Numbered from the stretch's first letter, positions 744-61,026 are shown. The stretch: DNA of 64,000 nucleotides from Tagaea sp. (GCA_965279525.1 CBDIIB010000005.1:1805080-1869079), one strand, 5' to 3'. The notes: generated by a model not told the origin, from the sequence alone. Program-made: numbers and translations.

Positions 744-1382
744 TTACTGGCTGACCCACAGGATGCGGTGGCAGAAGACGACGTCCGACACTTCGAGGAC
801 GCGTTCGCCGTGCGCCGCGTTGAGCGAGGTGAGCTCGAGCTTGCGCTGGCCCTTGCGGATCAGCTGCTTTGCCATCACTTCGCCCGTCGTGGTCTTGACC
901 ACGCAGCGGTCGCCGCGGCGCAGGCTGGCCTGCGGCGAGACGACGATCGTGTCGCCGTCGCGGTAGACCGGCTCCATGCTGTCGCCCGCGACCATCAGCG
1001 CGTAGGCGTGCGTGTCGGCAAGCTCGGGGAACAGCAGCTCGTCCCAGCCCGCCCCGGTCGGATAGCCGGCATCGTCGAAGAAGCCCTTCTCGCCGGCCTG
1101 CGCGTAGCCGATCACGGGCACGCGGCGCATGGCGCCGGCCACGCTCGGCACGGTGCCGATATAGCCGACGAACTCCGACATCGTGGCGCCGGTCGCCTCG
1201 AGGATCTTGGAGATGCTCTCGGTCGACGGCCAGCGCGGGCGGCCGTCGCGCGAGATGCGCTTGGACTTGTTGAAGGTTGTGGGATCGAGGCCGGCGCGGC
1301 GCGCCAGTCCCGACGGGGAGAAGCCATGATCGCCTGCGAGCTGATCGATGGCCTGCCAAACATCTGCGTGACGGAGAATCAT
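744..1382 (-). CDS. XRE-HTH / peptidase S24 (LexA/CI-like) repressor
   Basis: N-terminal HTH (SPSGLARRAGLDPTTFNKSKR); Ala-Gly site (AQAG), catalytic Ser (GDSM) and Lys (VMAKQL); ATG at 1382 chosen over the upstream start in AT-rich DNA. Confidence 0.9.
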   Translation of the reverse strand: MILRHADVWQAIDQLAGDHGFSPSGLARRAGLDPTTFNKSKRISRDGRPRWPSTESISKILEATGATMSEFVGYIGTVPSVAGAMRRVPVIGYAQAGEKGFFDDAGYPTGAGWDELLFPELADTHAYALMVAGDSMEPVYRDGDTIVVSPQASLRRGDRCVVKTTTGEVMAKQLIRKGQRKLELTSLNAAHGERVLEVSDVVFCHRILWVSQ

Positions 1383-1528
1383 GTGTGAATTTTTACTCAG
1401 GTTGTTGCGGAATGCATTAGGTATGTAAGCCAAAATATATCTTCAAATGAAAATAAACGCAAGTTTGTATGGATTGCGTCCCTGTCAAAGGATGTTTAGC
1501 TTTTGTTCTTTCCATTTCAGGTAGTGAC
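1383..1528. promoter_or_regulatory. AT-rich divergent control region between the repressor and the phage-like operon
   Basis: Sharp AT-rich island; TTGACA on the minus strand at 1483-1488; several GG-N8-C(C/T) boxes. Confidence 0.65.
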
Positions 1529-1996
1529 ATGCGGCGATTCCCAAGGGCGGGCAGGGTGCCGGAAGCGGCAAAGGCGGGTGGTCTTGCCACGGCCGGGGCG
1601 CGTGCCCTCGTCGTGTTCCGCGACCAGACCGAGATCCGCTGGCTCTACGGCCTCCGGCGGGGCTTCCGCCACTGCGCGGTGTGGGTGCGGGCGGGCGATT
1701 TCTGGATCGCACAGGAAACCCTTTCGCATCAGACTTTATTGGGGGTCTGGCCGGCCGGTGACGGGACCGGGCTGGTGGCGGCCCTGCGCGCGTCCGGGCA
1801 CCGGGTCGTGCGCACGCGCATCGCGGCGGCTCCCCGCCGGATCGCCCCGCCGCTGCCGTTCAGCTGTGTGGAATCGGTCAAGCGCGTTCTGGGCATCCAC
1901 GCCTGGGATGTGCTGACCCCCTGGCAGCTCTACCGGCATTTGATCCGGGGGCGTTCAAAATCGATATTGACAATTACCCTAACTAGGAATATTTAA
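1529..1996 (+). CDS. Putative permuted papain-like (NlpC/P60 superfamily) enzyme
   Basis: His before Cys (GFRHC ... FSCVESVKRVLG) and C-terminal TPWQL, the permuted papain-like pattern. Confidence 0.6.
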   Translation: MRRFPRAGRVPEAAKAGGLATAGARALVVFRDQTEIRWLYGLRRGFRHCAVWVRAGDFWIAQETLSHQTLLGVWPAGDGTGLVAALRASGHRVVRTRIAAAPRRIAPPLPFSCVESVKRVLGIHAWDVLTPWQLYRHLIRGRSKSILTITLTRNI

Positions 1997-1997
1997 T
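1967..1997 (+). promoter_or_regulatory. Putative sigma70 promoter for the head genes
   Basis: Perfect TTGACA at 1967-1972, 17-nt spacer, TATTTA(AT) in an AT-rich patch. Confidence 0.55.
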
Positions 1998-2104
1998 AAA
2001 ACAGGCTCGATATTCGGGCAGTTTCGGGTTTCGAAGGGCGCGATTTCGGGCGCCTTGGAACCGGAAATAGGTTTTAGTGCCAACTTTTTTGCTGGAGATG
2101 TCCC

Positions 2105-2320
2105 ATGGGTGGTTTTTTCTCGGCTCCCTCGATTCCCGCTTCGCCGCCACCGCCGCCGCTCCCCGAGCCGGTCGATACCGACAAGGAAGCGCGCGAGGCG
2201 CGCATCAAGGCGCTGATCCGCCGCCGGCGCGGCCGGGCCGGCCTTGTCGCGACCGGCGATCGCGGCGTGCTGCAGGCCCCGGCCGGCGCCTCGCTGCTGG
2301 CGACGAAGCTGGGAGAATGA
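2105..2320 (+). CDS. Small Pro-rich/basic virion protein preceding the portal
   Basis: 71 aa (MGGFFSAP...PPPP...RRRRGR...KLGE); GGAGA RBS; ATGA overlap with the portal; typical podophage pre-portal position. Confidence 0.75.
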   Translation: MGGFFSAPSIPASPPPPPLPEPVDTDKEAREARIKALIRRRRGRAGLVATGDRGVLQAPAGASLLATKLGE

Positions 2321-3873
2321 CGATGGCCGATTTCGATCCGCCCACTTTCGATCCGGCCGCCGCCGCCAGCGAAGCGCTTGCCCGCTACCGGCGCGCGCGC
2401 CAGTCGCGCGGCAACTGGGAAGCGGTCTGGCAGGACTGCTACGAGTTCGCGTTGCCCCAGCGCACGCCGTCGGGGACCGGCGGCATCGAGCGGCGCGGCG
2501 AGCGGCTGTTCGACGGCACAGCCGGCGACGCGGCCGAGCAGCTTGCCGCCTCGCTGATGTCGCAGCTCGTGCCGCCCTGGTCGCGCTGGTTCGGCCTGCA
2601 GCCGGGCAACGAGGTGCCCGAGGCGCATCGCACGGCCGTCGGCGAGGTGCTGGAAAAGGCCGCCGCCACGCTGCAGGCGCATTTCGACCGCTCGAACTTC
2701 GCCATGGAGATCCACCAGTGTTTCCTCGACCTCGTCGTCGCCGGCACGGCGATGCTGCAGTTCGAGGAAGCGCCGGCAGGGGCGGACTCCGCGTTCCGCT
2801 TCGCGGCCGTGCCGCTGGGAAGACTGGCGCTCGACGAGACCGCCGAAGGCGCCTTCGACATCGTCTTCCGCACGAGCGAGCTTTCCGCCGAACGGCTGAT
2901 GGCGCGTTTTCCCGACGCGGCACTGCCCGACGCGATCCGGAAAACCGACCCGCGCGGCAGCGCCGAGCGGCGCTTCACGGTCGTCGAATCGCTGCAGGCC
3001 GAGCGGCCGGGCTTCCGTTATCTCGCCCTGCTCGAGGACGGCACCGACGCGTCCGGCCCCGTCGTGCTAGCGGAGGGGCGTTTCGAGCAGCCGCCGTTCC
3101 TCGCCTTCCGCTGGCTCAAGGCGCCGGGCGAGGTCTATGGCCGCTCGCCCGTGATGAAGGCGCTGCCCGACATCAAGACCGCCAACAAGGTGGTCGAACT
3201 CGTGCTGAAGAACGCGTCGATCGCGGTCACCGGCATCTGGCAGGCGGACGACGACGGCGTGCTCAACCCCGCGAACATCCGCCTGCAGCCGGGCACGATC
3301 ATCCCCAAGGCAGTGGGTTCGGCCGGCCTCACGCCGCTCGAAGCACCCGGGCGCTTCGACGTGTCGAACCTCGTGCTCGACGACCTGCGCAAGCGCATCC
3401 GCCATGCGCTTCTCGCCGACCGTCTCGGGCAGGTCGACAGCCCGACGATGACCGCGACCGAGGTGCTGGAACGTTCGGCGGAGATGTCGCGCATCCTGGG
3501 GGCGACCTATGGCCGCCTGCAGGCCGAACTGCTGACGCCGCTGATCGCGCGCGCCATCGCCATCCTGCGCCGGCGCGGCGAGATCCCGCCCGTGCTGGTC
3601 GACGGGCGCACGGTCGAGCTCCAGTACAAGTCGCCGCTGGCACTCGTGCAAGCGCAGGCCGACGTGCGCAACGCCATGCTGTGGATCACCCAGGCCGCCA
3701 GCCTCGGCCCCGAGGCGATGGCCGTCGTCGATGCCGGGGCCGCCGCACGCTGGATGGCGCGCGCGTTGAGCGTGCCGGCCGATCTCGTCCGTCCGCCGTC
3801 CCCTGTTCTGCCGGGGCCTGTTTCGCCGATGGCGATGCTCGCCCAAGTCCTCACACCCCAACCCCAACAGTGA
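2317..3873 (+). CDS. Podovirus portal (head-to-tail connector), T7 gp8-like
   Basis: 518 aa; motifs RWxxxPGEVYGRSPVMKALPDIK and MTATEVLER; ATGA-coupled start. Confidence 0.93.
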   Translation: MTMADFDPPTFDPAAAASEALARYRRARQSRGNWEAVWQDCYEFALPQRTPSGTGGIERRGERLFDGTAGDAAEQLAASLMSQLVPPWSRWFGLQPGNEVPEAHRTAVGEVLEKAAATLQAHFDRSNFAMEIHQCFLDLVVAGTAMLQFEEAPAGADSAFRFAAVPLGRLALDETAEGAFDIVFRTSELSAERLMARFPDAALPDAIRKTDPRGSAERRFTVVESLQAERPGFRYLALLEDGTDASGPVVLAEGRFEQPPFLAFRWLKAPGEVYGRSPVMKALPDIKTANKVVELVLKNASIAVTGIWQADDDGVLNPANIRLQPGTIIPKAVGSAGLTPLEAPGRFDVSNLVLDDLRKRIRHALLADRLGQVDSPTMTATEVLERSAEMSRILGATYGRLQAELLTPLIARAIAILRRRGEIPPVLVDGRTVELQYKSPLALVQAQADVRNAMLWITQAASLGPEAMAVVDAGAAARWMARALSVPADLVRPPSPVLPGPVSPMAMLAQVLTPQPQQ

Positions 3874-3884
3874 AAGGAAGAACC

Positions 3885-4607
3885 ATGACCGATACGATCG
3901 CGAATTCCCCCGCAACGCCGCCGCCTTCGCGCCCCGACCACGTGCCCGAGAAATTCTGGGACGTGGAGGGCAACCAGGTGCGCGTCGAGGCGCTGTCGAA
4001 ATCCTATTCGGAACTCGAGCGCAAGCTCTCCGGCATGATCCCGGGGCCGAAATCGCCCGAATGGGAGCAGAGCTGGCGCAAGGCGCTGGGCGTGCCCGAA
4101 GCGCCCGACGCCTACCGCATCGCGCCCAAGGACGAACTCGTTTCGGTCGATCCGGAAGTGAACCGCCGCCTGCATGCGGCCGGCTTCACGCCGCAGCAGG
4201 CCCAGCTCGTCTACGACCTCGCGGTCGAGCGGCTCGTCCCGATGGTGCAGGACTATGCCGAGAGCTACCGCACCGAGACCGCGCGCGAGAAGCTCGCGGC
4301 CGAGTTCGGCGGCGCGGATCAATGGGCCGCACTGGCCCCGCAGATCGCGCGCTGGGGCCAGCAGGCCCTGCCTTCGCATGTCTACGCGGCGCTCGCCGCG
4401 TCGCCCGAGGGCGTGCGCGCGATGCACCGCATGATGTCGTCGAAGGAACCGGACCTGCGTGGCTTCGGCGGTGCGGCCGCCCCGCTCGACGAGGAAGGCC
4501 TGCGCAAGCTGATGTCCGACAAGCGCTACTGGCGCGACCACGACCCCGCGGTCGTGCGTGCCGTCAGTGAAGGTTTCAAGCGGCTCTACCCGGATCGCGA
4601 ATCCTGA
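3885..4607 (+). CDS. Capsid scaffolding protein
   Basis: Lies between portal and capsid; RPDHVPEKFWD N-terminus and MSDKRYW...FKRLYP C-terminus; AAGGAAG RBS. Confidence 0.8.
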   Translation: MTDTIANSPATPPPSRPDHVPEKFWDVEGNQVRVEALSKSYSELERKLSGMIPGPKSPEWEQSWRKALGVPEAPDAYRIAPKDELVSVDPEVNRRLHAAGFTPQQAQLVYDLAVERLVPMVQDYAESYRTETAREKLAAEFGGADQWAALAPQIARWGQQALPSHVYAALAASPEGVRAMHRMMSSKEPDLRGFGGAAAPLDEEGLRKLMSDKRYWRDHDPAVVRAVSEGFKRLYPDRES

Positions 4608-4617
4608 TCCGCAGGGC

Positions 4618-4646
4618 TTGACAACAAAACAACCATAGATTATATA
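4618..4646 (+). promoter_or_regulatory. Putative internal sigma70 promoter for the capsid gene
   Basis: TTGACA at 4618-4623, 17-nt spacer, TATATA at 4641-4646; AT-rich patch just after the scaffold stop. Confidence 0.55.
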
Positions 4647-4857
4647 CCGGATCGTTCCGCCCCGCCCTGTGCGCGGGAGAACGGAACGACCCACTTCCTT
4701 CCAGCGCCAACGGGACAACCGGCTTTCCGGCCCCCACGGCACCGCCCGACTTTCCCCCGCGAAACGGGGTCGTGGCTTTCGTGTCCTTTCCGGACGCGGG
4801 CGCCTCGGCAACCCTCGCTTGCGGGTCCCCCGAACCCAACTCGCAACAGAGGGACCC

Positions 4858-5670
4858 ATGCCCGACATCGACAAGGCTTTCGTCAAGCAATACGAGAACG
4901 ACGTCCATCTCGCCTTCCAGCGGATGGGCTCGAAACTGCGCACGAGCGTGCGCTCGAAGAAGAACGTCCAGGGTGCTTCGACCGTCTTCCAGAAAATGGG
5001 TCGCGGCGCCGCCACCACCAAGGCCCGCCACGCGGCCGTGCCCGTGATGAACGTCGACCATGCGACGGTCGAAGTGTTCCTCAAGGATTATTACGCGGGC
5101 GAATGGCTCGACGCGCTCGACGAGATCAAGGCGCCGAGCGACGAGCGTTCGGCGGTCGTCAATTCCGGCGCCTACGCGCTGGGACGCAAGACCGACGAGC
5201 TGATCATCGGCGCACTCCAGACCTCGGCGAACTTCGCCGGGGCCGACACCGACGGTCTCACCAAGGCCAAGATCCTGACCGCGTTCGAGATGCTGGGCGC
5301 TTCCGACGTGCCCGACGACGGTGACCGCTTCGCCATCATCGGGTGGAAGCAGTGGAGCGAGCTGCTCGACATCGACGAGTTCGCCAACGCCGACTATGTC
5401 GGCGCCGACGATCTCCCGTGGCAGGGCACGCAGGCCAAGAAGTGGCTCGGCACCTTGTGGATGCCGCATTCGGGCCTGCTCGCCAGCGGCGGCGTGCGCG
5501 CGTGCCACTGGTACCACAAGGCCGCGGTCGGCCACGCGTCGGGCTGCGAGGTGCGCTCGGACGTGTCGTGGCACGGCGACCGCGCGTCGTTCTTCATCAG
5601 CAACATGATGAGCCAGGGCGCCGGCATCATCGATGCCGCCGGCGTCGTGACCCTGCGCTGCAAGGAATAG
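4858..5670 (+). CDS. Major capsid protein
   Basis: 270 aa; FVKQYENDVHLAFQRMGSKLR and AYALGRKTDELII are typical of podophage capsids; position after the scaffold. Confidence 0.88.
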   Translation: MPDIDKAFVKQYENDVHLAFQRMGSKLRTSVRSKKNVQGASTVFQKMGRGAATTKARHAAVPVMNVDHATVEVFLKDYYAGEWLDALDEIKAPSDERSAVVNSGAYALGRKTDELIIGALQTSANFAGADTDGLTKAKILTAFEMLGASDVPDDGDRFAIIGWKQWSELLDIDEFANADYVGADDLPWQGTQAKKWLGTLWMPHSGLLASGGVRACHWYHKAAVGHASGCEVRSDVSWHGDRASFFISNMMSQGAGIIDAAGVVTLRCKE

Positions 5671-5679
5671 GAGCGAACG

Positions 5680-5949
5680 ATGGCCTTCGAACTCAGGAAC
5701 CTGTCCGTGCTCGCCTACGCGAACGGCTTCACGCTGTGGCACTACGCCACGCCGGATGAAGCCGCCGCGGTCGACGATGCGGGCTACTTCAACGCCGCCG
5801 CCGACATGCTGCGCGCCGGCGACATGATCCTTGCCAACACGGCCACGACGACGGCGCCGCAAAGCGGCGTCTTCGCGGTCGCGACGGTGGCGGCGGGATC
5901 GGTCGATGCCGCGAGCCTGACACCGTTCGGCACGTCCAACCCCGACTGA
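5680..5949 (+). CDS. Small phage structural protein, possibly head decoration
   Basis: 89 aa, AGGAG RBS, directly after the capsid; function inferred from position only. Confidence 0.7.
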   Translation: MAFELRNLSVLAYANGFTLWHYATPDEAAAVDDAGYFNAAADMLRAGDMILANTATTTAPQSGVFAVATVAAGSVDAASLTPFGTSNPD

Positions 5950-5961
5950 CGAAACGGCAAC

Positions 5962-5997
5962 CCGGCGGGCGCGATCGCGTCCGCCGGACTTTCCCTT
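5962..5997 (+). terminator. Hairpin terminator/attenuator between head and tail genes
   Basis: CCGGCGGGCGCG-AT-CGCGTCCGCCGG stem followed by ACTTTCCCTT. Confidence 0.55.
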
Positions 5998-6013
5998 GTC
6001 CGGAGAATCCGCA

Positions 6014-6583
6014 ATGGCCCTCACGTCCATCGCCTTGTGCGCGCGCGCCCTCGTCAAGCTCGGTGCCCGCTCGATCGCCTCGTTCGACGAAGGCACGGCC
6101 GAGGCGGAAGTCGCCGCCGTGCTCTATCCATCCGTGCGCGACGGCCTGCTGTCCGCCCATCCGTGGAGCTTCGCGACCGGCCAGGCCACGCTTGCGCGCC
6201 TTGCGCGCGATCCCGTCGCCGACCACGCCTTCGCCTACCAGCTTCCGGCCGATTTCCTGCGCGCTTTGTCGCTGGGGACGGGCACGCGCGGCCGCGGGAC
6301 CGAATACCGGATCGTGGAATCCACGCTCCACTGCGATGCCGACCAGGTCGTGCTGTCCTACGTGTTCCGGCCCGACGAGACCGGCTTCCCGCCCTTCTTC
6401 GACACGCTGCTGATCGCCACGCTGGCGGCCGAGTTCTGCCTGCCGGTGACGGAAAGCACCAGCCGCGCCGAACTGCTGCGCCGCGTGGCCGAGGGCGAGT
6501 TCCGGCGCGCGCGCCTGATCGACGCCCAGCAGGACACGCCCCAGCGCATCGAGGACTTCACGCTGGTGGAGGCCCGCCGATGA
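6014..6583 (+). CDS. Tail tubular protein A / head-tail adaptor
   Basis: 189 aa; ALCARALVKLGA, HPWSFAT and YQLPADFLR motifs; position. Confidence 0.82.
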   Translation: MALTSIALCARALVKLGARSIASFDEGTAEAEVAAVLYPSVRDGLLSAHPWSFATGQATLARLARDPVADHAFAYQLPADFLRALSLGTGTRGRGTEYRIVESTLHCDADQVVLSYVFRPDETGFPPFFDTLLIATLAAEFCLPVTESTSRAELLRRVAEGEFRRARLIDAQQDTPQRIEDFTLVEARR

Positions 6584-8487
6584 GCGTCGTGCGCATCGCC
6601 AAGACGAGCTTCGCCTCGGGCGAGATCGGACCGGCCATGCTGGGCCGCGTGGACCTGCGCGCGTTCGAGAACGGGGCGCGCACGTTGCGCAACGTCATCG
6701 TGCAGCCGTCGGGCGGCGTGACGCGCCGGCCGGGGCTGGCGCATGTCGCCACGCTGCCGGGCCCGGCCCGGCTGGTCGCGTTCGAGTTCAACACCGAGCA
6801 GGCCTATCTGCTGGCCCTCCTCGACGGGGAGATGCGCGTCTATCGCGAGGGCGTGCAGGTGGCGAGCCTCGCCACACCGTGGACGGGCGCGCAGATCGGC
6901 CAGGTCGCGTGGACGCAGAGTGCGGACACGCTGCTCGTCGTGCATCCCGACGTGCCGCCGCGGCGCATCACGCGCACGTCGCACGCGGCGTGGACGATCG
7001 AGCCGTGGGCCTTTTTCGAGGACAAGGGTGTGCGCCACCAGCCCTACCACAAGTTCGCCGCGACCGACGTCACACTCCAGCCGAGCGGAACGTCGGGCTC
7101 CGTGACGCTGACGGCGTCGGCCGACGCGTTCGTCGCCGGCCATGTCGGCGAGAAGCTGCGCGTCCAGCAGAAGGAGCTGACGGTCACCGCCGTGACGGGT
7201 CCGCGCAGCGCCACCGCCACCCTCGCGACCGACCAGACGCTGCCCGACACGAGCGCGACGCGCGACTGGGAGGAGGCGGCGTTTTCCGCCATCCGCGGCT
7301 GGCCGGTATCGGTCACGTTCCACCAGGACCGGCTCGTCGTCGGCGGTTCGCGCGACCTGCCCAACCGGCTGTGGCTGTCGAAATCGGGCGACCTGTTCAA
7401 TTTCGATCTGGGCACGGGTCTGGACGACGAGGCGATCGAGTTCGCGCTGCTGTCCGACCAGGTCAACGCGATCCGCCACGTCTTCTCGGGTCGCCACCTG
7501 CAGGTCTTCACGTCGGGGGCCGAATGGATGGTGACGGGCGAGCCGCTGACGCCCGAGAACGTCCAGCTCGACCGGCAGACGCGCATCGGCAGTCCGACGG
7601 ACCGTTCGGTACGGCCGCGCGACGTGGATGGTGCGACGCTATTCGTCGGGCGCGGCGGACATGATCTTCGCGAGTTCCTGTTCGCCGATGGCGAGCAGGC
7701 CTATCAGGCGACGGATCTGGCGTTGCTTGCCCCGCATCTGGTGCGCGATCCCGTCGCCATCGAGTACGACCCGGACGACCGGCTGCTGCACGTCGTCAAT
7801 GCCGACGGCACGCTTGCCACGCTGACGGTCTATCGCGCCGAGCAGGTGACCGCGTGGGCGTTGCAGACGACGCTCGGGTACTTCCGTTCGGTCGCGACGG
7901 TGTCGGACGAGACCTATCTTGCGGTCGAGCGCACGGGCATCTGGTCGGTCGAACGCTTCGACCGGTCCTTCGCGACCGACGCTGCCGTGCGGCTTGAGCC
8001 GCCGCAGAACGCCACGCAGTGGACGGGCCTTGCGCATCTCGACGCCAAGAAAGTCGAACTCGTCGGCGACGGCGTGCCGCTGGGCACCGGCATCCCGATC
8101 GGCGGCACACTTGACGTACGGGCACCCGTCGCGTCGCTCGAAGCGGGCCTCGCATTCGCCGCCGTGATCGAACCTCTGCCGCCCACGCTTGCCGCGGCCG
8201 GCGGGGCGAGCCCGCGCAGCGTGCGCCTGATCGAGGCCGCGTTCCGCCTGCTGGAGGCGCGCCAGATGCGCATCGACACCGGCGGCGGTGCCGTCGACGT
8301 GCCGTTCCGCCGCTTCGCCGCCGGCAGCACCCTCGACCAGCCCGTCGCCGGCTTCACCGGCGAGAAACGCGTGCGCGCGTTGGGCTGGAAGCGGGCCGGC
8401 ATCGACGCGCTGTGGCGCATCGAACTGCCGGCACCGCTGCCTTTCACGCTGCTTTCCGTAACCCACGAACTGAAGGTGAATGACTGA
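6580..8487 (+). CDS. Tail tubular protein B / nozzle
   Basis: 635 aa, beta-rich; SFASGEI, GGVTRRPG and WPVSVTFHQDRL motifs; ATGA overlap. Confidence 0.85.
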   Translation: MSVVRIAKTSFASGEIGPAMLGRVDLRAFENGARTLRNVIVQPSGGVTRRPGLAHVATLPGPARLVAFEFNTEQAYLLALLDGEMRVYREGVQVASLATPWTGAQIGQVAWTQSADTLLVVHPDVPPRRITRTSHAAWTIEPWAFFEDKGVRHQPYHKFAATDVTLQPSGTSGSVTLTASADAFVAGHVGEKLRVQQKELTVTAVTGPRSATATLATDQTLPDTSATRDWEEAAFSAIRGWPVSVTFHQDRLVVGGSRDLPNRLWLSKSGDLFNFDLGTGLDDEAIEFALLSDQVNAIRHVFSGRHLQVFTSGAEWMVTGEPLTPENVQLDRQTRIGSPTDRSVRPRDVDGATLFVGRGGHDLREFLFADGEQAYQATDLALLAPHLVRDPVAIEYDPDDRLLHVVNADGTLATLTVYRAEQVTAWALQTTLGYFRSVATVSDETYLAVERTGIWSVERFDRSFATDAAVRLEPPQNATQWTGLAHLDAKKVELVGDGVPLGTGIPIGGTLDVRAPVASLEAGLAFAAVIEPLPPTLAAAGGASPRSVRLIEAAFRLLEARQMRIDTGGGAVDVPFRRFAAGSTLDQPVAGFTGEKRVRALGWKRAGIDALWRIELPAPLPFTLLSVTHELKVND

Positions 8488-9047
8488 TGGGTGGTTTCGC
8501 TCCGACCGATCCGGTCACGGCCGGGATCGCAGGCGTCAGCCTGCTCCACGGCATCGCTAGCTCGGGTGCTGCCGCATCCCACGCGCAGGCGCAAGCCGCC
8601 GCACAGGCGCAGGCCATGCAGGTGCAGGCCGAACGCCAGCGCCAGCTGCTCGAGCGCCAGTACGAGTCACAGACGCGCCAGCGCACCAACCTGCTCGAAC
8701 GCGCGACCGCGAAGGCGCGCGTGTCGTTCGGTGCGCGCGGCATCTCGCCGACCGACGGTTCGGCGGGCGCCATGCTCGACGGCATCGAGACCGATTTCGG
8801 CATCGAGGAGGCCGAACGCTTCCAGGACTACACGATGCAGCGCGACGGGCTGGCGCACGGGCTGGCGGCCTCGCTCCAGCGCATCGACGGCATGCGCCAG
8901 GGCAACTTGCTCGCCGCGGAGTCCGACGTGCAGCGCCGGATCCTCGGCCTGCTGAGCTGGGGCGGCCGGACTTTCGGCCGAAGTGGCGGAAATCAGCGGG
9001 CGCCGACCGGTGATTTCCCCGTTGGCCCCTACGACAACTTCGTCTGA
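8487..9047 (+). CDS. Putative internal virion (ejection) protein, T7 gp14-like
   Basis: 186 aa; Gly/Ala hydrophobic N-terminus, Q/A-rich helix, ARGI...GS motif; position after the nozzle. Confidence 0.65.
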   Translation: MGGFAPTDPVTAGIAGVSLLHGIASSGAAASHAQAQAAAQAQAMQVQAERQRQLLERQYESQTRQRTNLLERATAKARVSFGARGISPTDGSAGAMLDGIETDFGIEEAERFQDYTMQRDGLAHGLAASLQRIDGMRQGNLLAAESDVQRRILGLLSWGGRTFGRSGGNQRAPTGDFPVGPYDNFV

Positions 9048-9063
9048 CGCAAGGAGCACCCTC

Positions 9064-10815
9064 ATGAGCGAACACATCAAGATTGCCGCCCGTCCGCCGC
9101 GCAAGCGCTATCGCGCCGACGGCAGCCAGCGCGTCTTCGCCTTCGACTTCGCGGTCTTCCGGCCCGAAGACATCGAGATCGGCATCGACGGCGCGGTCCT
9201 TTCGGGCGGCTACACCGTCGCGGTCGGCACTGCCGGCAGCGGTGCCGTCACGCTCGACGTGGCACCGCCCGACGGTGCCGCCGTCGTCGTCCAGCGCCGC
9301 CTGCTGCTGCGCCGCGAGACGGATTTCCAGGAAGGCGGCGAGCTGCGCGCCAAGACGCTCAACGACGAACTCGATTTCCAGGCGGCCGCCCTCCAGCAGG
9401 TCGCGAGCGCGGTGGCGCGGTCGCTGCACCTGCCCGACGAAGATGCCGACGATGCCGCAACGCGCCTGCCGCGCGCCGGGCTGCGCGCACGCAAGGCGCT
9501 GGTGTTCGACATGGCCGGCAATCCGGCCGTGTCGGCCGACATATATGTCGACCAGGCGGCGGCGTCGGCGGCGAGTGCCGACGCTGCCGCCGGATCGGCG
9601 ACGGCGGCCGGCACGTCTTCCGCGTCCGCTTCGGCATCCGCTGGTGCAGCACTCGTGTCCGCCGATGCGGCGGCCGCATCGCAAGCACTTGCCGCAACGC
9701 ATCTGGCCGGCACGACCATCCACGCGGGCACGGCTGCCGCCGCCGCATCGGCCGTCGCCGTGCCGTGGACCCATGACGCATCGGTCGCGATCGACGATCC
9801 GGGTCCGGGACGCTTCCGCTTCGATGCGGCCGACCCGTCGGCGGCGGGCGCCATCGCGGTGTCGGCCCTTTCCGCCGATACCGGCGTGCCCGACGTCTCG
9901 GACTTCGTCGCGACGTGGGGGGCCAGCACCAACCCGGCGGTCAAGGGCACGCTGGTCTTGCGCAAGAGCGGCGCGCCGTCGACCTTCGCGGCGTTCGCGA
10001 TCCAGTCGGTCGTCGATCACGGTGCCTGGCTTGCCGTCGCGGTCGCGCATGTCGCGTCGGGCGGAAGCTGGGCGGCGGGCGATCTGGCCCATTTCGGGTT
10101 CGCGCGCGCCGGTGACAAGGGCTTCGACGGGACCGGCACGGTCGTCAGCGTCGCGGCGGGCGACGGGTCGGTCGCGGTCGGCGGCACGCCGTTCGATCGC
10201 ACCGTCGCCGTCGCCGCGAACGGCGTGACGCTGGCCAAGCTCGCCCGAGAAGGATCGCCCGGACAGGTCCTCACGTCGAACGGGGCGGGTGCCGATCCCG
10301 CGTACCAGGCGCTGCCGGCGGGCGTGCCTGCGGGCACGGTCGTGCCCTATGCCGGGGCGAGCGAACCGGCGGGCTGGCTGTTCGCCGCCGGGCAGGCCGT
10401 GAGCCGGTCGGCGTTCGCAGCGCTTTTCGCGGCGATCGGCACGACGTTCGGCAGCGGCGACGGATCGACGACATTCAACCTGCCCGACCTGCGCGGGCGC
10501 GTGGCGGCCGGTCGCGACAACATGAACGGTACTTCCGCCAACCGCCTGACCGCCGGTGGTGCCGGCATCGCGGGCCTGACGCTTGGTGCGGCGGGCGGCA
10601 GCGAGACGCATGCGCTGACGGCCGCCCAGATGCCGGCGCATTCGCACAGCTACGTCGCCGGGGGCGGCGGCATGACGGTCGCGGGCTCCTTCGGCGGCAC
10701 CGACACGACGGCCGGCACGCCGGGCAGCGGCAGCACGTCGGGAGCCGCGGGTTCGGGTGCGGCACATCCCAACGTGCAGCCCACGCTCGTCCTCAACCAC
10801 ATCGTCAAGACCTGA
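9064..10815 (+). CDS. Tail fibre with T7 gp17-type N-terminal anchor and C-terminal collar domain
   Basis: YRADGSQRVFAFDF...DFQEGGELRAKTLNDELD anchor; Ala/Ser stalk; collar motif GWLFAAGQAVSR...TFNLPDLRGR. Confidence 0.88.
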   Translation: MSEHIKIAARPPRKRYRADGSQRVFAFDFAVFRPEDIEIGIDGAVLSGGYTVAVGTAGSGAVTLDVAPPDGAAVVVQRRLLLRRETDFQEGGELRAKTLNDELDFQAAALQQVASAVARSLHLPDEDADDAATRLPRAGLRARKALVFDMAGNPAVSADIYVDQAAASAASADAAAGSATAAGTSSASASASAGAALVSADAAAASQALAATHLAGTTIHAGTAAAAASAVAVPWTHDASVAIDDPGPGRFRFDAADPSAAGAIAVSALSADTGVPDVSDFVATWGASTNPAVKGTLVLRKSGAPSTFAAFAIQSVVDHGAWLAVAVAHVASGGSWAAGDLAHFGFARAGDKGFDGTGTVVSVAAGDGSVAVGGTPFDRTVAVAANGVTLAKLAREGSPGQVLTSNGAGADPAYQALPAGVPAGTVVPYAGASEPAGWLFAAGQAVSRSAFAALFAAIGTTFGSGDGSTTFNLPDLRGRVAAGRDNMNGTSANRLTAGGAGIAGLTLGAAGGSETHALTAAQMPAHSHSYVAGGGGMTVAGSFGGTDTTAGTPGSGSTSGAAGSGAAHPNVQPTLVLNHIVKT

Positions 10816-10817
10816 AC

Positions 10818-12332
10818 ATGAAAAAGAAACCCGCCTTGCCGCCGCCGGCACCGCCTGCCGTGCCCGGCTTTCCCGCATTCGTCAACGACTGGAACGCGCT
10901 GCAGGGGCAGGGCACGCCCGCGTTGCACGCGCGCATGGCCGGCTGGCTTGCCGATGCGCGGGCGTCGCGCGCGGCGGGCCTGGTCCTGCTCGCGTTCCGC
11001 TCGAGCGGCAAGTCGACGCTGATCGGGCTGTTCTGCGCCTGGCTGCTGGCGCGCGATCCCGACCTGCGCGTGCTGGTGCTGGCGGCGGAAGAAGCGCTCG
11101 CGCGCAAGATGGTGCGCAACGTCAAGCGCATCGTCGAGCGGCACCCGGCGACGGCGGGCCTGAAGCCGGTGCGCGCCGACATGTGGGCTTCGGACCAGTT
11201 CGTCGTCGAGCGGCGGGCGGAACTGCGCGACCCCTCGATGCTGGCGCGCGGGCTTGCGGGCAACATCACCGGCAGCCGCGCCGACGTGGTGATCTGCGAC
11301 GACGTCGAGGTGCCCAACACCTGCGACACGCACGCCAAGCGCGTCGAGCTGCGCGAACGGCTGACCGAGATCGACTACGTGCTCGTTCCCGGCGGCCTGC
11401 AGCTCTATATCGGCACGCCGCACAGCTACTATTCGATCTATGCGGCCGAGGCGCGTGCTGAAGCGGGCGAAAGCGTGCCGTTCCTCGACGGCTTCACGCG
11501 CCTGTCGATCCCGGTCGTGGCGCCCGACGGGACCTATGCGTGGCCCGAGCGGTTCGACCTCGCGCGTCTGGATGCGGTGCGCAAGCGCACCGGCCCGCAG
11601 AAGTTCCGCGCGCAGATGATGCTGGAGCCGGTCGCCGACGGTGCCTGCCGGCTCGATCCCGACCGCCTCGTCGCCTACGACTGGCCGCTCGATTATTCGG
11701 AAGGCAACGGGGCGCCGGTCCTTTCGATCGGCGGCAAGCAGATGGTATCGGCCGGCTGCTGGTGGGATCCGTCCTATGGCACCGCGGCGGGCGACAGCTC
11801 CGTCGTCGCGGTCGTGTTCGCCGACAAGGAAGGCCATTGCTATCTGCACGAGGTGAAGTACCTCGCCCTTCCCGCCGGCACGCGCCCCGAGGACGAGGCG
11901 AAGGCGTTCTGCCGCCAGGTCGCCGAGTTCGCCAGGCGCAACCACGTGCCGGTCGTTCGCGTGGAAACCAATGGCCTTGGCGGATTCCTGCCCGGGCTGT
12001 TGCGCGGGGAAATCCTCGCGGCGAAGGCGGGCTGCGGGGCGGTCGGCATCCACAACCGGATACCGAAGGTCCGCCGCATCCTCGACGCGTTCGACGCGCG
12101 TCTGGCCGCCGGCATGCTCCACGCCCATCGCGGCGTGTGGGCGACACCCTTCGTTGCCGAGATGCGCGAGTGGCGTGCCGACCTCAGCGGCGTGCGCGAC
12201 GACGGGCTCGACGCCGTGGCCGGCTGCCTTGCCGGCGAGCCGGTGCGCTTTCCTGCCGTCGCACGCGAAACGCCGCCCGATTGGCGGCCGGGTGCGGGCT
12301 CGCACAAGGCGCGCACCGAGTTCGAGATCTGA
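10818..12332 (+). CDS. terL: Terminase large subunit
   Basis: Walker A AFRSSGKST, Walker B VVICDD, IGTP motif, nuclease acidic residues (WDPS, DDGLDA). Confidence 0.92.
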   Translation: MKKKPALPPPAPPAVPGFPAFVNDWNALQGQGTPALHARMAGWLADARASRAAGLVLLAFRSSGKSTLIGLFCAWLLARDPDLRVLVLAAEEALARKMVRNVKRIVERHPATAGLKPVRADMWASDQFVVERRAELRDPSMLARGLAGNITGSRADVVICDDVEVPNTCDTHAKRVELRERLTEIDYVLVPGGLQLYIGTPHSYYSIYAAEARAEAGESVPFLDGFTRLSIPVVAPDGTYAWPERFDLARLDAVRKRTGPQKFRAQMMLEPVADGACRLDPDRLVAYDWPLDYSEGNGAPVLSIGGKQMVSAGCWWDPSYGTAAGDSSVVAVVFADKEGHCYLHEVKYLALPAGTRPEDEAKAFCRQVAEFARRNHVPVVRVETNGLGGFLPGLLRGEILAAKAGCGAVGIHNRIPKVRRILDAFDARLAAGMLHAHRGVWATPFVAEMREWRADLSGVRDDGLDAVAGCLAGEPVRFPAVARETPPDWRPGAGSHKARTEFEI

Positions 12333-12352
12333 AACGAGGAGAGGGATCTGCA

Positions 12353-12646
12353 ATGGATATGTTCGAACTGACGCCCGGCCTTGCGATCGTCGCGGCCTCC
12401 GACGCGTCGAGCTTCGGCGCGATCGCGTGGCTGTTCTGGAAGCGCCACCAGGACCAGGAACGCATGCTCGATCGGCTGCGCCAGGCCTGTCTCGACGAGA
12501 CGCGCGACCTGCGCCATGCGCTTGCCGAGTTCAAGCTCGAGGTCGCGCGCGGCTACGCGTCGATCGGCTACATCAAGGATGTCGAGAACCGGCTGACGGC
12601 CCACCTGCTGCGCATCGAGGCGAAGCTCGACGGAGTGGGCGCATGA
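12353..12646 (+). CDS. Small membrane-anchored coiled-coil protein of the lysis region
   Basis: 97 aa; hydrophobic N-terminal segment, then a helix ending LLRIEAKLD; GAGGAGAG RBS. Confidence 0.65.
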   Translation: MDMFELTPGLAIVAASDASSFGAIAWLFWKRHQDQERMLDRLRQACLDETRDLRHALAEFKLEVARGYASIGYIKDVENRLTAHLLRIEAKLDGVGA

Positions 12647-13188
12647 TCCCGGCCCTGATCGCCCAGGTCGGTCTGCCGCTGCTCGTCCGGCTCGTGGGCG
12701 GTGCCTTGTCGCAGATCGACCATCCGGCCGCGCGCGCGGCGGCGGACGCACTCGAGACGGCCGGCGGCACGCTGACGCAAGAGCAGGTCGCCGAGGCCAA
12801 CCGCCATCTCGAGGCGATGGCGCGGCTCGAAAGCGAGGAAGGCCGCGAGACGATCCGCGAGGTCAACGCCTCGCTGCGCACCGAGGCCGCCAGCGAGGAC
12901 GCCTATGTGCGGCGCATGCGGCCGACCTTCGGCTACGTGATGGCCGCGACGTGGGCCGCCCAGATGGGGGCGGTGGCGTGGATCGTCGTGCGCAAGCCGG
13001 GCGAGGCCGCCGCGGTGATCGAAGCACTTGGCGCCTTGTCGGTCGTCTGGTCGGTCGGGCTGTCGGTGCTGGGCGTCTATGTCTACAAGCGCTCGTCCGA
13101 CAAGGCGGTGGCGTCGGGGGCGGTGGCGTCGGGAAGTCCGCGGCCGGGCCTGGTCGATGCGATCCGAGGGGCCGTCTTGCGGCGCTAG
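12643..13188 (+). CDS. Holin, 3TM (GTA_holin_3TM-like) family
   Basis: 181 aa; [18 protein letters not shown] followed by two TM helices and KRSSDK. Confidence 0.75.
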
Positions 13189-14855
13189 GCCGCCCCGCCG
13201 CCGGCCGAGTTGCTCAGCAGGCGCTCGGAGATGCGCCGCAGGCCGCCGATGTTCTCGGTGACCGTCGCGAGCGACACGCGCACGCCGGCCGAGCTCGTGC
13301 TGACCGCGTCGATCTCGCGGCTGACGTTCTTGATCTTGGCGGAGACCTCGCGCGAGGCTTCGGCCGTCTGGGCGACGTTGCGCGCGATCTCCTGCGTGGC
13401 CGAGCCCTGTTCTTCCATCGCGGCGGCGATCGCGGTCGCGACCCCGTCGACCTCGCGGATGCGCTCGCCGATCTCGGCCACGGCCGCGACCGCGGCGTCC
13501 GTCGCCGTCTGGATCTCGCCGACCTGGCGGTCGATGTCCTCGGTCGAGCGGCCGGTCTGGTTGGCGAGGTTCTTGACCTCCGATGCCACCACCGCGAAGC
13601 CCTTGCCGGCATCGCCCGCGCGCGCGGCCTCGATCGTGGCGTTCAGCGCCAGCAGGTTGGTGCGCCCGGCGATCTCGCCGATGAGCTTGCTCACCTCGGC
13701 GATCTTGCCCACGGCGTCGGACAGCGAGCGGATCGTCGCCTGCGCGTTCTGGCCGCTCGACACGGCGCTCTTCGTCACGCTCGAGGCGCGCGCGACCTGG
13801 GTGGTGATCTCGTGGATCGACGCCGAAAGTTCCTCGGCCGCGGACGAGACCGTCTGGACATTGACGAGCGCCTGCTCGGATGCCGCGGCGACCGCCTCGC
13901 TCTCGGCCAGCACCTCGCCGGCGAGCTTCGCCATGCCTTGTGCGGCCTCGTCGACGCTGCTCGTCGCGGCGGCGATGGAATCGACGGCGACCGCGGTTTC
14001 CTGGACGGTCGCGGTCATCTCGAGCATCCGGCGCTGGCGGCGCTCTTCGGACTGCGCCGCGGCCTTCGCGGCGTCGGCGCGCAGCCGCTCGTTCTCGACC
14101 GCGTTGTCCTTGAAGAACGAGACCGCGGCCGCCATGTCGCCGACCTCGTCGGTCCGCCCGCTGCCGGGGATCCCGATGGCGACGTCGCCGGCGGCAAGCC
14201 GGCTCATCGCCGACGCCATGGCCCCGACCGGCCGGCCGATGTTGCGCGCAAGCAGGAGCCCGACGATCGCCGCGACGACGACCGTGAGGAGCGCCACCGC
14301 CGAAAGCGCCAGCACGACGTTGTCCACGCTGCGCGTGGCGTCCTGGCGGAAATAGTAGCCGTGCTCCTTCGCGGCCTCGTTGACGATCGTGATCCGCGTC
14401 TCGAGGGTCTTCAGCAGGGCGTCCTTCTCGGCCAGCAGGTTCCCGGGAACCTCGCCGCCGGCCGACGCATCGGCAAAGAGCCGCGTGCGCAACGCTTCCC
14501 ACCGGGCGAGCGTCTCGCGGACATTCGCGATCTGGGTGGCGCTGTCGGGGCCGACCGCCCGCTCCTCGACGATCGCGAGATCGTCGAGGAGGGCCGATTC
14601 CTGGCTCGTCACGGCCTCGATGTCGGGCGGCGTGCCGTCGCGCCGCTGCTGGAGAGCCAGCGTCACCGCGAGGTCGAGCTTGGCGTAGTTCGTCATCGCC
14701 GACGCGGCGAAGTCGCTTGCCATCAACGGCCCGTCATAGAGCGCCTCGGTGAGCGAGGCGGCCTTGCGCAGGCCGATGACGGCATAGCCGCCCATCGCCA
14801 TCGTCATGACGATGACGATGGCGAGGCCGACAAGGATTTTTCCCCGGATACGCAT
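13185..14855 (-). CDS. Methyl-accepting chemotaxis protein
   Basis: TM-periplasmic-TM, HAMP (RTDEVGDMA), signature [33 protein letters not shown]. Confidence 0.95.
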
Positions 14856-14889
14856 TGCCGCGACTCCCGTATGTCGGGGAACGACCCGA

Positions 14890-15210
14890 TTACCTGACGG
14901 TCAGTTTCATCTTCATCTGCGGGTGGATGGCGCAACGCACCTCGCCCGTTCCTTCGCGGTCGAACTTGATGTCGCTCGACTCGCCGGGCTTCTGCACCTT
15001 CAGCTCGAAGGCGATGCCCGGCGACTGCGAATAGACATTGTGGGTGAACGGGTCGTCGTTCTTGAAGACGATGGTGTCGCCCTTGGCGATCGTCATCTCG
15101 GCGACGGCGAACTTCTTGTCGGCCTGGACGACGGTGCTGGTCGCCGCAAGCGCATAGCTGCTTGCGGCACCGGTGGCGATGGCGAGGACGGGCAACATGT
15201 AACGGCGCAT
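14890..15210 (-). CDS. Periplasmic type-1 copper protein (cupredoxin, amicyanin/plastocyanin-like)
   Basis: Signal peptide; THNV and C-x2-H-x2-M (RCAIHPQM) copper ligands. Confidence 0.88.
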
Positions 15211-15254
15211 CTTGGTAGCTCCTTGGATTCGGGTCGACGTATCTTGTCGGGTTT

Positions 15255-22286: not shown

Positions 22287-22329
22287 AACCTATCCGTCGT
22301 CGACCTCCGGCACAGAAGCGAACAAGCAC

Positions 22330-58866: not shown

Positions 58867-59012
58867 CCCCCTAAAAAGCCATGCAAAATTTGCATGAGCT
58901 ACATGCGAGGGCCCCTTTTAGCGACGAAAGCTGTCCGGATTAGTTTCAAAACTATTTCGGATCAGTGACTTAACTTAGATATCCACCGTCAAAAAGGACC
59001 GCGTTTTATTGT

Positions 59013-59041
59013 TTGACTTGGGGGGGGCAAACCCCTAGAAA
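59013..59041 (+). promoter_or_regulatory. rRNA operon promoter
   Basis: TTGACT-17 nt-TAGAAA with AT-rich upstream DNA; boxA-like GCTCTTTGAAA at 59106. Confidence 0.7.
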
Positions 59042-59331: not shown

Positions 59332-60830
<1,499 letters not shown>

Positions 60831-61026
60831 GTGCGAACTTTCGAAGACCCTCACGTCTTCAAGATCGCCGTTCCTTGGTTTCGGCAATCGGGTGCAATTC
60901 CCGAAAGCCAACCGGCCCGACCGGGCGATCGATCGATCGCCAGGCGACATCCGGGAGAACTTCGGTTCTCGAACCTCGCCGCCGCCGGCGCATCCCTTCC
61001 CTTAGATCCGCAAAAGACGAGCAGTC

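Follow-up and report, generated by a model that had tools for sequence, protein, structure and literature searches.

The cluster at positions 744-13188 of a 64,000-nt stretch of Tagaea sp. DNA (the window, meaning the whole stretch that was analysed) appears to be a domesticated podovirus that may serve as a gene transfer agent (GTA), with a T7-type head, short tail, packaging motor and lysis cassette that were presumably kept by an alphaproteobacterial ancestor. Read from sequence, this interpretation is given a probability of roughly 0.55. The domestication itself is well supported by what the cluster contains, by its host-like inheritance and purifying selection, and by the dispersal of the set into separate loci in other lineages. 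Many other Alphaproteobacteria likewise retain, over long evolutionary time, no more than the particle, packaging and lysis genes of a T7-like virus, and if the GTA reading is true, this bacterium may carry a GTA of a kind not yet described.

The locus is compact in Tagaea (12.4 kb) and consists of a divergent S24/HTH repressor gene and 13 close-set plus-strand genes, from orf155 to the holin gene, in the order given in Table 1. From g71 onward, neighboring genes overlap by 4 bp or 1 bp or are separated by gaps of 2-20 bp, the two exceptions being the scaffold-capsid (250 bp) and g89-tubular A (64 bp) junctions. A previous sequence-only reading of the window had placed its genes correctly but overlooked one of 71 aa (2105-2320, here g71). 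It had also described the surroundings as ordinary host genes, and the gene identities agree on both sides: the left flank encodes a pentapeptide-repeat protein, GST, DedA, glutamate synthase and RpoN, and the right flank MCP, cupredoxin and cytochrome c peroxidase. The GC content of the cluster, 0.63-0.735 per kb, is similar to that of the remaining window.

Table 1. Genes and putative elements of the Tagaea cluster (positions counted from the first letter of the window).
Feature	Position	Strand	Matches and remarks
S24-peptidase/HTH repressor	744..1433	-	PF00717 3.5e-20; phrog_4 transcriptional repressor 8.8e-28; HTH_26 2.9e-4, just under cut-off
SOS-box-like direct repeat GTTT-N7-GTTC	1490..1504	+	25 bp upstream of orf155 start
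orf155, conserved protein	1529..1996	+	alternative start possibly 1469
Sigma-70-like promoter TTGACA-N17-TATTTA	1966..1994	+	precedes g71-portal; found by eye
g71, 71 aa	2105..2320	+	stop overlaps portal start (ATGA)
Portal (head-tail connector)	2317..3873	+	PF12236 1e-137; phrog_332 1.9e-101
Scaffolding protein	3885..4607	+	PF05396 Phage_T7_Capsid 1.5e-10; phrog_3742
Scaffold/capsid intergenic region	4608..4857		split point of the set in other lineages
Major capsid protein	4858..5670	+	PF19821 6.6e-78; phrog_3437 9.3e-67
g89, small protein after capsid	5680..5949	+	phrog_18004 3.7e-18
GC-rich hairpin, 11-bp stem	5962..5987	+	between g89 and tubular A
Tail tubular protein A	6014..6583	+	phrog_394 2e-46
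Tail tubular protein B	6580..8487	+	phrog_376 8.1e-141
int186, 186 aa	8487..9047	+	sole match phrog_35077 2.4e-4
Tail fibre	9064..10815	+	Collar PF07484 1.4e-23; phrog_1640; PF03906 T7 fibre N domain 4e-4, below cut-off
Large terminase TerL, T7 gp19 type	10818..12332	+	phrog_38 1.1e-77
g97	12353..12646	+	phrog_29007 8.1e-24
3-TM holin	12643..13188	+	PF11351 GTA_holin_3TM 7.8e-11, above cut-off; phrog_3427 holin

Family matches and phage comparison bear out the T7-type podovirus gene order that had been read from the window: PF12236, PF05396, tubular proteins A and B and a gp19-type TerL stand in T7 order, while the fibre N domain scores below the cut-off (4e-4). The other parts of a T7-like virus are missing, since neither a single-subunit RNA polymerase, replication genes nor large internal core proteins occur in the cluster or its flanks, and no small terminase was found, with no match to PF11123. 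The RNA polymerase profile PF00940 has no match here, but none in the control genomes either. The absence of integrase, att sites and replication genes noted earlier likewise holds for the cluster and its flanks. No att-like direct repeat was found at the cluster and no tRNA gene within 47 kb of it; the nearest tyrosine integrase on the contig lies 860 kb away, and serine recombinases are confined to another contig. An integrase or replication module left of the window was also sought, and none is present in the adjoining 20 kb or in the 40 kb scanned by eye. What remains is a chromosomal set of phage-derived structural genes without replication, integration or excision genes, as in GTAs and other viriforms, rather than the integrase, att sites and joint lysogeny, replication and structural modules of an intact temperate prophage. 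A tailocin, which consists of tail genes only, was rejected because the cluster also has conserved genes for portal, scaffold, capsid and TerL.

The locus occupies the same chromosomal place across the genus, with portal and SecA lying 23-29 kb apart on one contig in 12 genomes and a right flank common to the genus loci. In up to 17 species of the genus, among which SecA diverges by up to 20%, every cluster gene has its full length. Selection is not relaxed, as dN/dS (NG86, 12 genome pairs) is far below 1, at about 0.01-0.5 over the whole cluster: capsid 0.04-0.16, portal 0.03-0.18, tubular A 0.01-0.15, tubular B 0.04-0.28, TerL 0.04-0.46 and int186 0.08-0.48, with 0.03-0.19 for the comparison gene SecA. 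For 13 genomes, a nine-gene tree has the same topology as the SecA tree except within one weakly resolved trio, and pairwise cluster and SecA distances correlate at a Spearman coefficient of 0.95 (78 non-independent pairs). One genus member (G015) has a deletion from portal through TerL. The conserved locus, intact genes, purifying selection and host-congruent tree uphold the earlier description of the element as host-maintained, and an intact or recent prophage was rejected on the basis of the genus-wide position, the congruent tree and the lack of integrase and att sites. Two hallmarks of GTAs are thus found, vertical inheritance (at genus and family level) and purifying selection on structural and packaging genes.

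Beyond the genus, an even sample of 401 alphaproteobacterial genomes from 294 genera contains the portal in 60 genomes (50 genera), the capsid in 69, TerL in 55 and all three in 53. None of 21 genomes from 12 sister genera has the cluster. Patchy presence with incongruent trees had been named in advance as evidence against a GTA; congruence holds at the genus level, but above it the distribution is patchy, and the class-wide tree shows two or more misplacements that are well supported. The named genera form clades in an 80-row portal tree (14 Azospirillum isolates at 99, Ferrovibrio and Caenispirillum each at 100), and in a 59-row tree so do 14 of the 18 GTDB families having at least two carriers, the tree needing 37 label changes where the minimum is 35 and shuffling gives a mean of 52.6. 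Conflicts with host family at high support occur in the class tree for two genomes, G381 (grouped with f92) and G344 (grouped with f10).

The set is divided into two modules, up to 1.6 Mb apart, in at least 16 carriers. Portal and capsid occur together in 59 genomes. The arrangement is compact in 30 of these, and 8 show a rearrangement or a gap of 6-25 kb; in 8 more the modules share a contig at a distance of 60 kb to 1.6 Mb, and in 13 they are on separate contigs. Outside Tagaea, scaffold and capsid can be separated by host genes or by megabases, and the Azospirillum set contains a GGDEF-EAL host gene. Both modules are intact in G283, G237 and G390. The GC content of the locus tracks that of the host, from 0.39 to 0.69, and cluster genes are retained even in genomes of 0.9-1.4 Mb. 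One core gene has a stop or break in seven genomes (G020, G190, G313, G139, G091, G200 and G370), which may be assembly errors, and in G119 the TerL match spans residues 17-322 only.

Several elements point to the control of the cluster. The repressor translation has an Ala-Gly site, and its GDSM motif supplies a Ser that lies 37 residues before a Lys, the spacing of LexA/CI. The repressor gene adjoins orf155-portal in 69 of 80 loci of other genomes, and its dN/dS is 0.02-0.19. All 12 aligned genus genomes retain the SOS-box-like repeat, one of them as GTTC-N7-GTTT. In the genome that carries the Tagaea cluster, lexA itself has GAAC-N7-GAAC upstream; the one-mismatch form is found at 42 places on the two strands of 4.35 Mb. 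LexA or the S24 repressor may bind this putative box. The promoter-like site before g71-portal was not flagged by a consensus promoter scanner; in all 12 genus genomes compared, its -35 hexamer and the TAT..A of the -10 element are conserved, whereas neighboring bases vary. Between g89 and tubular A, a 10-17-bp stem of differing sequence forms at the same place in all 16 genus loci folded (z-scores of -0.97 to -3.94 in the 8 loci tested), and this hairpin is possibly an attenuator.

The less familiar genes are also conserved. The 168 homologues of orf155 at E<=1e-3 are all unnamed and without Pfam assignment, and share invariant His-Cys and Cys-x-Glu motifs; none of 31 members gave a Pfam match, and a PDB sequence search was likewise negative. 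Its atlas neighbors are mainly viral, and the nearest named cluster, a YiiX-like NlpC/P60 hydrolase (0.78), is a lead only. The g71 protein matches no Pfam or PHROG family and is 57-92% identical over 16 genus loci, and 49% in G033. Among 17 genus genomes, g89 is 89 aa long in every one, and capsid is 270 aa and tubular A 189 aa in all but one each; a g89 homologue stands at the equivalent post-capsid position in phage MEP301. The sole gene between tubular B and fibre, int186, probably encodes a small internal or tail protein. The fibre is conserved in its N-terminal anchor and variable toward the distal end: of 15 loci that have a fibre match, 11 align over the first 114-272 residues only. 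By eye, g97 has an N-terminal hydrophobic stretch and a helical remainder; in other lineages it stands before a SleB-type endolysin, which lies between g97 and holin, and it is a putative lysis-cassette partner. No endolysin was found in the Tagaea genome by tblastn or with PF07486 and PF00959.

From these parts a working cycle can be proposed for the GTA. The S24 repressor, autocleavable to judge by its motifs, perhaps together with host LexA at the SOS-box-like repeat, would keep the cluster silent until DNA damage leads to derepression, upon which the sigma-70-type promoter would drive g71-portal-scaffold-capsid and beyond, while the hairpin past capsid-g89 may reduce read-through into the tail genes. 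Procapsids would form on the portal with scaffold, and TerL would fill the heads. The search for a small terminase came up empty, so packaging is probably initiated without regard to sequence and would include host DNA. Large terminases of the T7 gp19 type work together with a small terminase, cut concatemers at defined ends and, to our knowledge, fall outside the headful clades that hold the known GTA terminases; because the Tagaea TerL is of this type, random packaging here is an assumption. Tubular A, tubular B and fibre would finish the particle, and the holin and its partner would lyse the producer to release it. Particles might then bind related cells via the fast-changing fibre tip. Because the large T7-type internal ejection proteins are missing, the DNA perhaps reaches only the periplasm and may then need the uptake machinery of the recipient, as is the case for RcGTA. 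Phage genomes of 34-36 kb indicate a capacity of about 35 kb for the ancestral head type; if head size is unchanged, the complete cluster could fit into one Tagaea particle, unlike in classical GTAs. No particle could hold the whole set in the eight genomes with modules 60 kb to 1.6 Mb apart on one contig.

The same evidence of domestication fits a particle whose benefit is not gene transfer but killing in the manner of PBSX, SOS-triggered altruistic lysis with DNA release, or decoying of phages, with DNA packaging incidental or serving another end. We consider this possible though rather unlikely. An S24 repressor with a LexA-box-like repeat amounts to SOS-type control, which is typical of defective-phage bacteriocins, a fast-changing fibre tip suits strain-specific targeting, and efficient DNA delivery is doubtful where large ejection proteins are absent. 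However, a device purely for killing or lysis has no need of portal and TerL, which are kept under purifying selection in 53 of the 60 carriers, and we know of no podovirus-type bacteriocin.

Explanations that do without domestication fare worse. A mobile satellite or site-specific island, helped by a phage to spread between hosts and inserting each time at one and the same site, is very improbable. In its favor, the sister genera lack the cluster, two host-family conflicts in the portal tree are well supported, and IMG/VR pipelines label such regions proviruses. Against it, neither an integrase nor an att repeat nor a tRNA target was found, the congruence with the SecA tree extends to proportional branch lengths, the GC content matches each host, and split modules are unable to move together. 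That the cluster is the functionless, decaying remnant of a T7-like prophage is scarcely credible and already contradicted by the selection data. Such decay would account for the lack of integrase, replication genes, small terminase, large internal proteins and (in the genus) endolysin, as well as for the seven genomes with a broken core gene, the shortened TerL match and the large deletion. Yet the 13 genes are intact across species as diverged as those above, dN/dS is far below 1, genomes of 0.9-1.4 Mb retain the genes, and both modules can be intact despite separation of up to 1.6 Mb.

Among known systems, the nearest phages share 30-38% portal and 26-31% TerL identity, and the best 80 of 290 IMG/VR relatives are pieces of 4-25 kb, bar one of 94 kb. 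There is a likeness to T7-type podoviruses without RNA polymerase, namely MEP301 (Methylophilales), the HTVC010P-type pelagiphages and Yersinia phages YeP4-6, which have the same order of portal, scaffold, capsid, small protein, tubular A, tubular B and fibre at identities of 22-39%; the cluster TerL resembles those of T7 (gp19) and YeP4 (26-31%). These phages have genomes of 34-36 kb, whereas the Tagaea cluster lacks the small terminase, RusA, SSB and endolysin of MEP301, as well as the four further internal virion genes (567, 161, 464 and 586 aa) that MEP301 has between tubular B and fibre.

Full-text literature searches found no paper describing such an element. Three viriform groups, RcGTA, BaGTA and BhGTA, have an established genetic basis according to the consulted passages of the ICTV viriform paper (PMC9662315). 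BaGTA of Bartonella and VSH-1/BhGTA of Brachyspira resemble the Tagaea cluster as independently domesticated phage-derived particle systems but descend from other phages. None is characterized as T7-like in those passages, and the name Dd1 does not occur in the paper (PMC9662315).

Particles of other kinds offer partial parallels. Dd1 of Desulfovibrio is a short-tailed GTA particle from a host in another phylum, and we know of no genes assigned to it. PBSX-like defective prophages of Bacillus are conserved, repressor-controlled and SOS-inducible, package host DNA and lyse the producer, but differ in their myovirus-type contractile tail, Gram-positive host and unrelated genes. RcGTA of Rhodobacter and Caulobacter is likewise a chromosomal, structure-only, phage-derived set that is host-inherited, under purifying selection and partly dispersed, and both systems have a PF11351 holin. 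RcGTA, however, is a long-tailed siphovirus type whose capsid belongs to the HK97 family, and the unrelated ancestry asserted earlier is supported: PF05065 and PF13547 have no match in the Tagaea genome while the Caulobacter control is positive, and in the 401-genome sample the 34 genomes with PF13547 and the 60 with the portal do not overlap. Control seems to differ as well, appearing SOS-like in the Tagaea cluster, whereas CtrA/GafA govern RcGTA.

Family searches bear out the claim of the sequence-only reading that positions 744-13188 of the window hold a cluster of structural and packaging genes, one of which, encoding a 71-aa protein (g71), had been overlooked. The source genome (4.35 Mb in five contigs, GC 0.65-0.67) carries here one minus-strand and 13 plus-strand genes, including four small genes without a named function, namely orf155, g89, int186 and g97. 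The g71 gene, whose stop overlaps the start of the portal gene, was found by reading of the sequence and has been conserved throughout the genus Tagaea. The further claim that the cluster lies between host genes, with no integrase or att-like repeat, also holds, as both flanks are ordinary host genes, the closest tyrosine integrase is 860 kb away, and the flanking direct repeats are just imperfect and GC-rich. No tRNA was found near the cluster, no serine recombinase on the window's contig, and no T7-type small terminase.

Coordinates and assignments of the cluster genes and of other features discussed (cluster genes in gene order)
Feature	Sequence	Positions	Strand	Assignment or content
Repressor	window		minus	S24-peptidase/HTH (family searches)
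orf155	window	1529-1996	plus
g71	window	2105-2320	plus	71 aa
Portal	window		plus	T7-type, PF12236 (1e-137)
Scaffold	window		plus	PF05396
Capsid	window		plus	PF19821
g89	window	5680-5949	plus
Tail tubular protein A	window		plus	phrog_394
Tail tubular protein B	window		plus	phrog_376
int186	window	8487-9047	plus
Fibre	window		plus	weak T7 N-terminal anchor and Collar domain
Large terminase (TerL)	window		plus	phrog_38
g97	window	12353-12646	plus
Holin	window		plus	3 TM, PF11351
Stretch right of holin	window	13185-16334		MCP, cupredoxin, di-haem cytochrome c peroxidase
Long open frame	window	22261-28245		1,995 codons
Low-GC stretch	window	59000-64000		GC down to 0.54-0.57
tRNA-Ile and tRNA-Ala	window	61027-61219
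Reduced locus	L133 (G015:C38)	about 7300-9800
Alternative fibre region	L025 (G001)	12455-15573
SleB-type endolysin	L136	6961-7455	minus	PF07486
Signalling gene	L064	12549-14963		GGDEF-EAL
Signalling gene	L099	12817-15243		GGDEF-EAL
Portal, two pieces	G091:C2	1262443-1263357 and 1280209-1280850
TerL, two frames	G200:C20	27533-29024
Capsid with stop	G370:C32	264906-265517

The MCP, cupredoxin and peroxidase genes lie between the holin and the genus-wide flank in the source genome and four others (G010, G011, G012 and G017), and represent a clade-specific insertion adjoining the cluster. Elsewhere in the window, the long open frame has coding-like GC3, and the low-GC stretch with its two tRNA genes probably represents an rRNA operon at the contig end.

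Within Tagaea, all but one of the 20 other species genomes have the portal, 18 of them at 71-97% identity and the 19th (G015) as a 49-residue remnant. Eighteen loci that were compared share an identical gene order and orientation, divergent repressor and orf155 included, and their gene gaps coincide with contig ends, except in one genome (G033) where int186, g97 and holin were undetected. In 12 genomes the host marker SecA and the portal share a contig, 23-29 kb apart, and the genus has its right flank beyond the holin in common. Full-length cluster genes are found in up to 17 genus genomes, and pairwise dN/dS is 0.01-0.5 for all of them but the fibre, with the values for capsid, portal and tubular protein A falling within the SecA range. 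A concatenated nine-gene tree of 13 genomes agrees with the SecA tree save for one weakly supported trio, and cluster and SecA pairwise distances are correlated (Spearman 0.95 over 78 non-independent pairs). The synteny, purifying selection and tree congruence that the sequence-only reading had proposed to look for are each found at the level of the genus, and the cluster passes down with its host inside it.

In the genome with the portal remnant, the repressor, orf155, g97 and holin are also kept, and everything from portal to TerL is gone; this loss is a single deletion of about 10 kb and constitutes a natural knockout. In one genus subclade (G001 and kin), the fibre gene encodes an N-terminal protein of 307 aa, and genes of ~800 and 237 aa come next, ahead of TerL; this points to another kind of distal fibre or tailspike module.

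The cluster is well separated from known phages. Identity to the closest phage portals is 30-38%, an unannotated 5-kb fragment at 60% being the one exception, and the closest phage TerLs are of the T7 gp19 type at 26-31%. The T7-type Methylophilales phage MEP301 has the same structural order, but unlike the cluster it also encodes a small terminase, RusA, SSB, an endolysin and, between the position of int186 and the fibre, another four internal virion genes. The inspected lineages of the element have space for one gene of 120-200 aa at most between tubular protein B and the fibre. Relatives occur on 290 IMG/VR contigs; among the best 80 of these, 79 are 4-25 kb long (many being stretches of isolate genomes, about 18 kb in size, that were called as proviruses), one is 94 kb, and none has the look of a 35-45-kb phage.

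Outside Tagaea, the element often occurs as two modules. The repressor, orf155, portal and scaffold remain together, with the repressor adjoining in 69 of 80 loci (of the other 11, 6 reach a contig end first and 5 have room but no match), and the block from capsid to TerL is often elsewhere. Of the 59 genomes in which portal and capsid both occur, 30 have a compact locus, 8 show a gap of 6-25 kb or a rearrangement, 8 have the blocks on one contig but separated by 60 kb to 1.6 Mb, and 13 carry them on different contigs. Both modules are intact in each of the three complete or long assemblies checked. In Azospirillum, a GGDEF-EAL (c-di-GMP) signalling gene directly follows the scaffold, ahead of the capsid (loci L064 and L099), and in strain A26 the 10 kb that follow do not contain the capsid block. 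Locus GC ranges from 0.39 to 0.69 and tracks that of the host. No virus could propagate from parts so scattered, whereas a particle factory run by the host could.

Several individual loci depart from the general pattern. The reduced genomes G358 (0.9 Mb; locus L144) and G111 (L143) have a GC of 0.39-0.40 and keep capsid, g89, tubular proteins A and B and portal, with a TerL that matches only residues 17-211, the ATPase part; the gene order in G358 is scrambled. The portal of G091 is split in two, with 17 kb between the pieces, the TerL of G200 is in two adjacent frames, the capsid of G370 carries a stop, and single stops occur in the portals of G020, G139, G190 and G313, all of which may be assembly errors.

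A scan of one genome per species returned at least 532 loci, and the named hosts among the best 80 of these include Azospirillum, Magnetospirillum, Paramagnetospirillum, Phaeospirillum, Caenispirillum, Ferrovibrio, Telmatospirillum and Terasakiella. In an even sample of 401 alphaproteobacterial genomes, on which the class-wide counts rest, the portal is present in 60 (50 of 294 genera, about one in seven genomes), the capsid in 69, TerL in 55, and all three in 53. Some carrier genomes are just 0.9-1.4 Mb in size, and for the capsid of the 0.9-Mb carriers 3,967 relatives reach E<=1e-60. Isolates of named genera form clades in an 80-row portal tree, from which one locus with a stop inside the match (L048) was left out. 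When hosts are labelled independently by their GTDB family codes, 14 of the 18 families that have two or more carriers come out as clades in the class tree, from which the divided portal of G091 was omitted; four families break this rule, two of them with good support (G381 falls with family f92, and G344 with f10). This indicates predominantly vertical inheritance, accompanied by some transfer or by old duplicate lineages. Agreement with host relationships, as anticipated by the sequence-only reading, extends in large part to the level of families, but distribution above the genus is patchy: in the window's GTDB order the element occurs in 15 of 37 genomes, all of this genus, and in 0 of 21 genomes from 12 other genera. 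Its absence from these sister genera reflects either loss or later gain by the Tagaea ancestor.

The control region offers a candidate route of induction. The repressor translation, read by eye, contains an Ala-Gly site, a Ser and a Lys at LexA-like spacing. All 12 genus genomes compared retain a GTTT-N7-GTTC repeat (1490-1504 in the window) 25 bp upstream of orf155, and the lexA gene of the source genome has GAAC-N7-GAAC, presumably the alphaproteobacterial SOS box. A candidate promoter at 1966-1994, TTGACA-N17-TAT..A, lies ahead of g71 and is likewise kept in 12 of 12 genus genomes; a consensus promoter scan returned no sites. The 16 genus loci that were folded all have a GC-rich hairpin after capsid-g89, of different sequence in each, which resembles the terminator behind T7 gene 10. 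It stands out by its conserved position only; the eight terminator-like sites of a simple scan are no more than in shuffles (6.7 +/- 2.7). An Rfam match to mir-56 (E 0.13) was dismissed as chance.

In other lineages g97, a SleB-type endolysin and the holin lie in a row (L136 and 14 other loci). No SleB-type endolysin was found anywhere in the source genome, which leaves the holin of the Tagaea cluster unaccompanied by any recognisable endolysin. For orf155, there was no Pfam or PHROGs match, Pfam searches with all 31 alignment members gave scattered chance matches only, and the single match of its profile to PDB sequences (E 0.87) was discarded as chance. Through its homologue P0110, orf155 falls in the Atlas among unnamed, mostly viral clusters, with a YiiX-like NlpC/P60 cluster at 0.78; this likeness may serve as a lead only, and a His-Cys ... 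Cys-x-Glu motif in the protein suggests a putative thiol hydrolase.

Four sequencing runs recorded or guessed as RNA matched small shares of the window. Two are plankton cDNA libraries from one sample, whose contigs, 90-98% identical, overlap parts of the genes for repressor, portal, both tubular proteins, TerL, g97 and holin at a depth of 3-7, like that of the flanking peroxidase gene; the other two are probably DNA. The plankton contigs were rejected as a sign of cluster transcription, since they come from relatives, the library may contain DNA and the depth cannot rank genes, and they are therefore no evidence of transcription.

Taken together, domestication of a T7-type particle gene set by its host is well supported, with a probability of roughly 0.9. 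The most economical reading of its product is that the particles would be gene transfer agents (GTAs), because packaging and adsorption genes are conserved, genes for self-propagation are absent and the loci are split. That the set instead serves a PBSX-like or other host function is a serious rival. Since the T7-type ejection proteins are lost, DNA carried by such agents may reach only the periplasm of kin cells. The full proposal, which falls slightly short of even odds, is of a second, ancient, independent, podovirus-derived family of alphaproteobacterial GTAs, SOS-induced, present in lineages where the RcGTA marker was not found, and delivering DNA perhaps only to the periplasm of kin.

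If this GTA proposal is true, virus-like gene exchange reaches Rhodospirillales-type lineages, including the model and agricultural genera Azospirillum and Magnetospirillum, and the element provides a natural experiment on which podovirus parts a host retains or discards. It would also be a caution that provirus predictors class such loci as viruses, as with the IMG/VR contigs. Carriers include Azospirillum, Magnetospirillum, Caenispirillum, Ferrovibrio and Tagaea as well as the lineages with 0.9-1.4-Mb genomes, and the cultivable ones make the element directly testable. As an aside, T7-type replication and transcription proteins operate in mitochondria, and an old T7-like resident of Alphaproteobacteria would be of some interest in that respect.

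No published description of the element was found in the full-text literature, a coverage that does not extend to subscription journals. Mitomycin-induced particles of Azospirillum are reportedly siphovirus-like and are therefore not equated with a product of this element. Such particles, with about 10 kb of DNA, were obtained from A. lipoferum and B510 and taken as GTAs (Boyer et al., 2008, as summarised in PMC3899980). A paper on RcGTA homologues does not use the term 'podovir' (PMC9254644). The sequence-only reading had held the cluster to be unrelated to RcGTA, the siphovirus-type agent, and this is supported in that neither the HK97 capsid family (PF05065) nor the GTA_TIM domain (PF13547) has a match in the source genome. 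Across the 401-genome sample, 34 genomes have GTA_TIM, 60 have the portal and none has both, where chance would give about 5 (Fisher p 0.005, kinship not corrected for). To our knowledge, none of the three genetically known GTA lineages is short-tailed. These three are the only GTA groups with an established genetic basis in the viriform classification (PMC9662315), and the present element, if indeed a GTA, would represent a fourth, independent domestication event.
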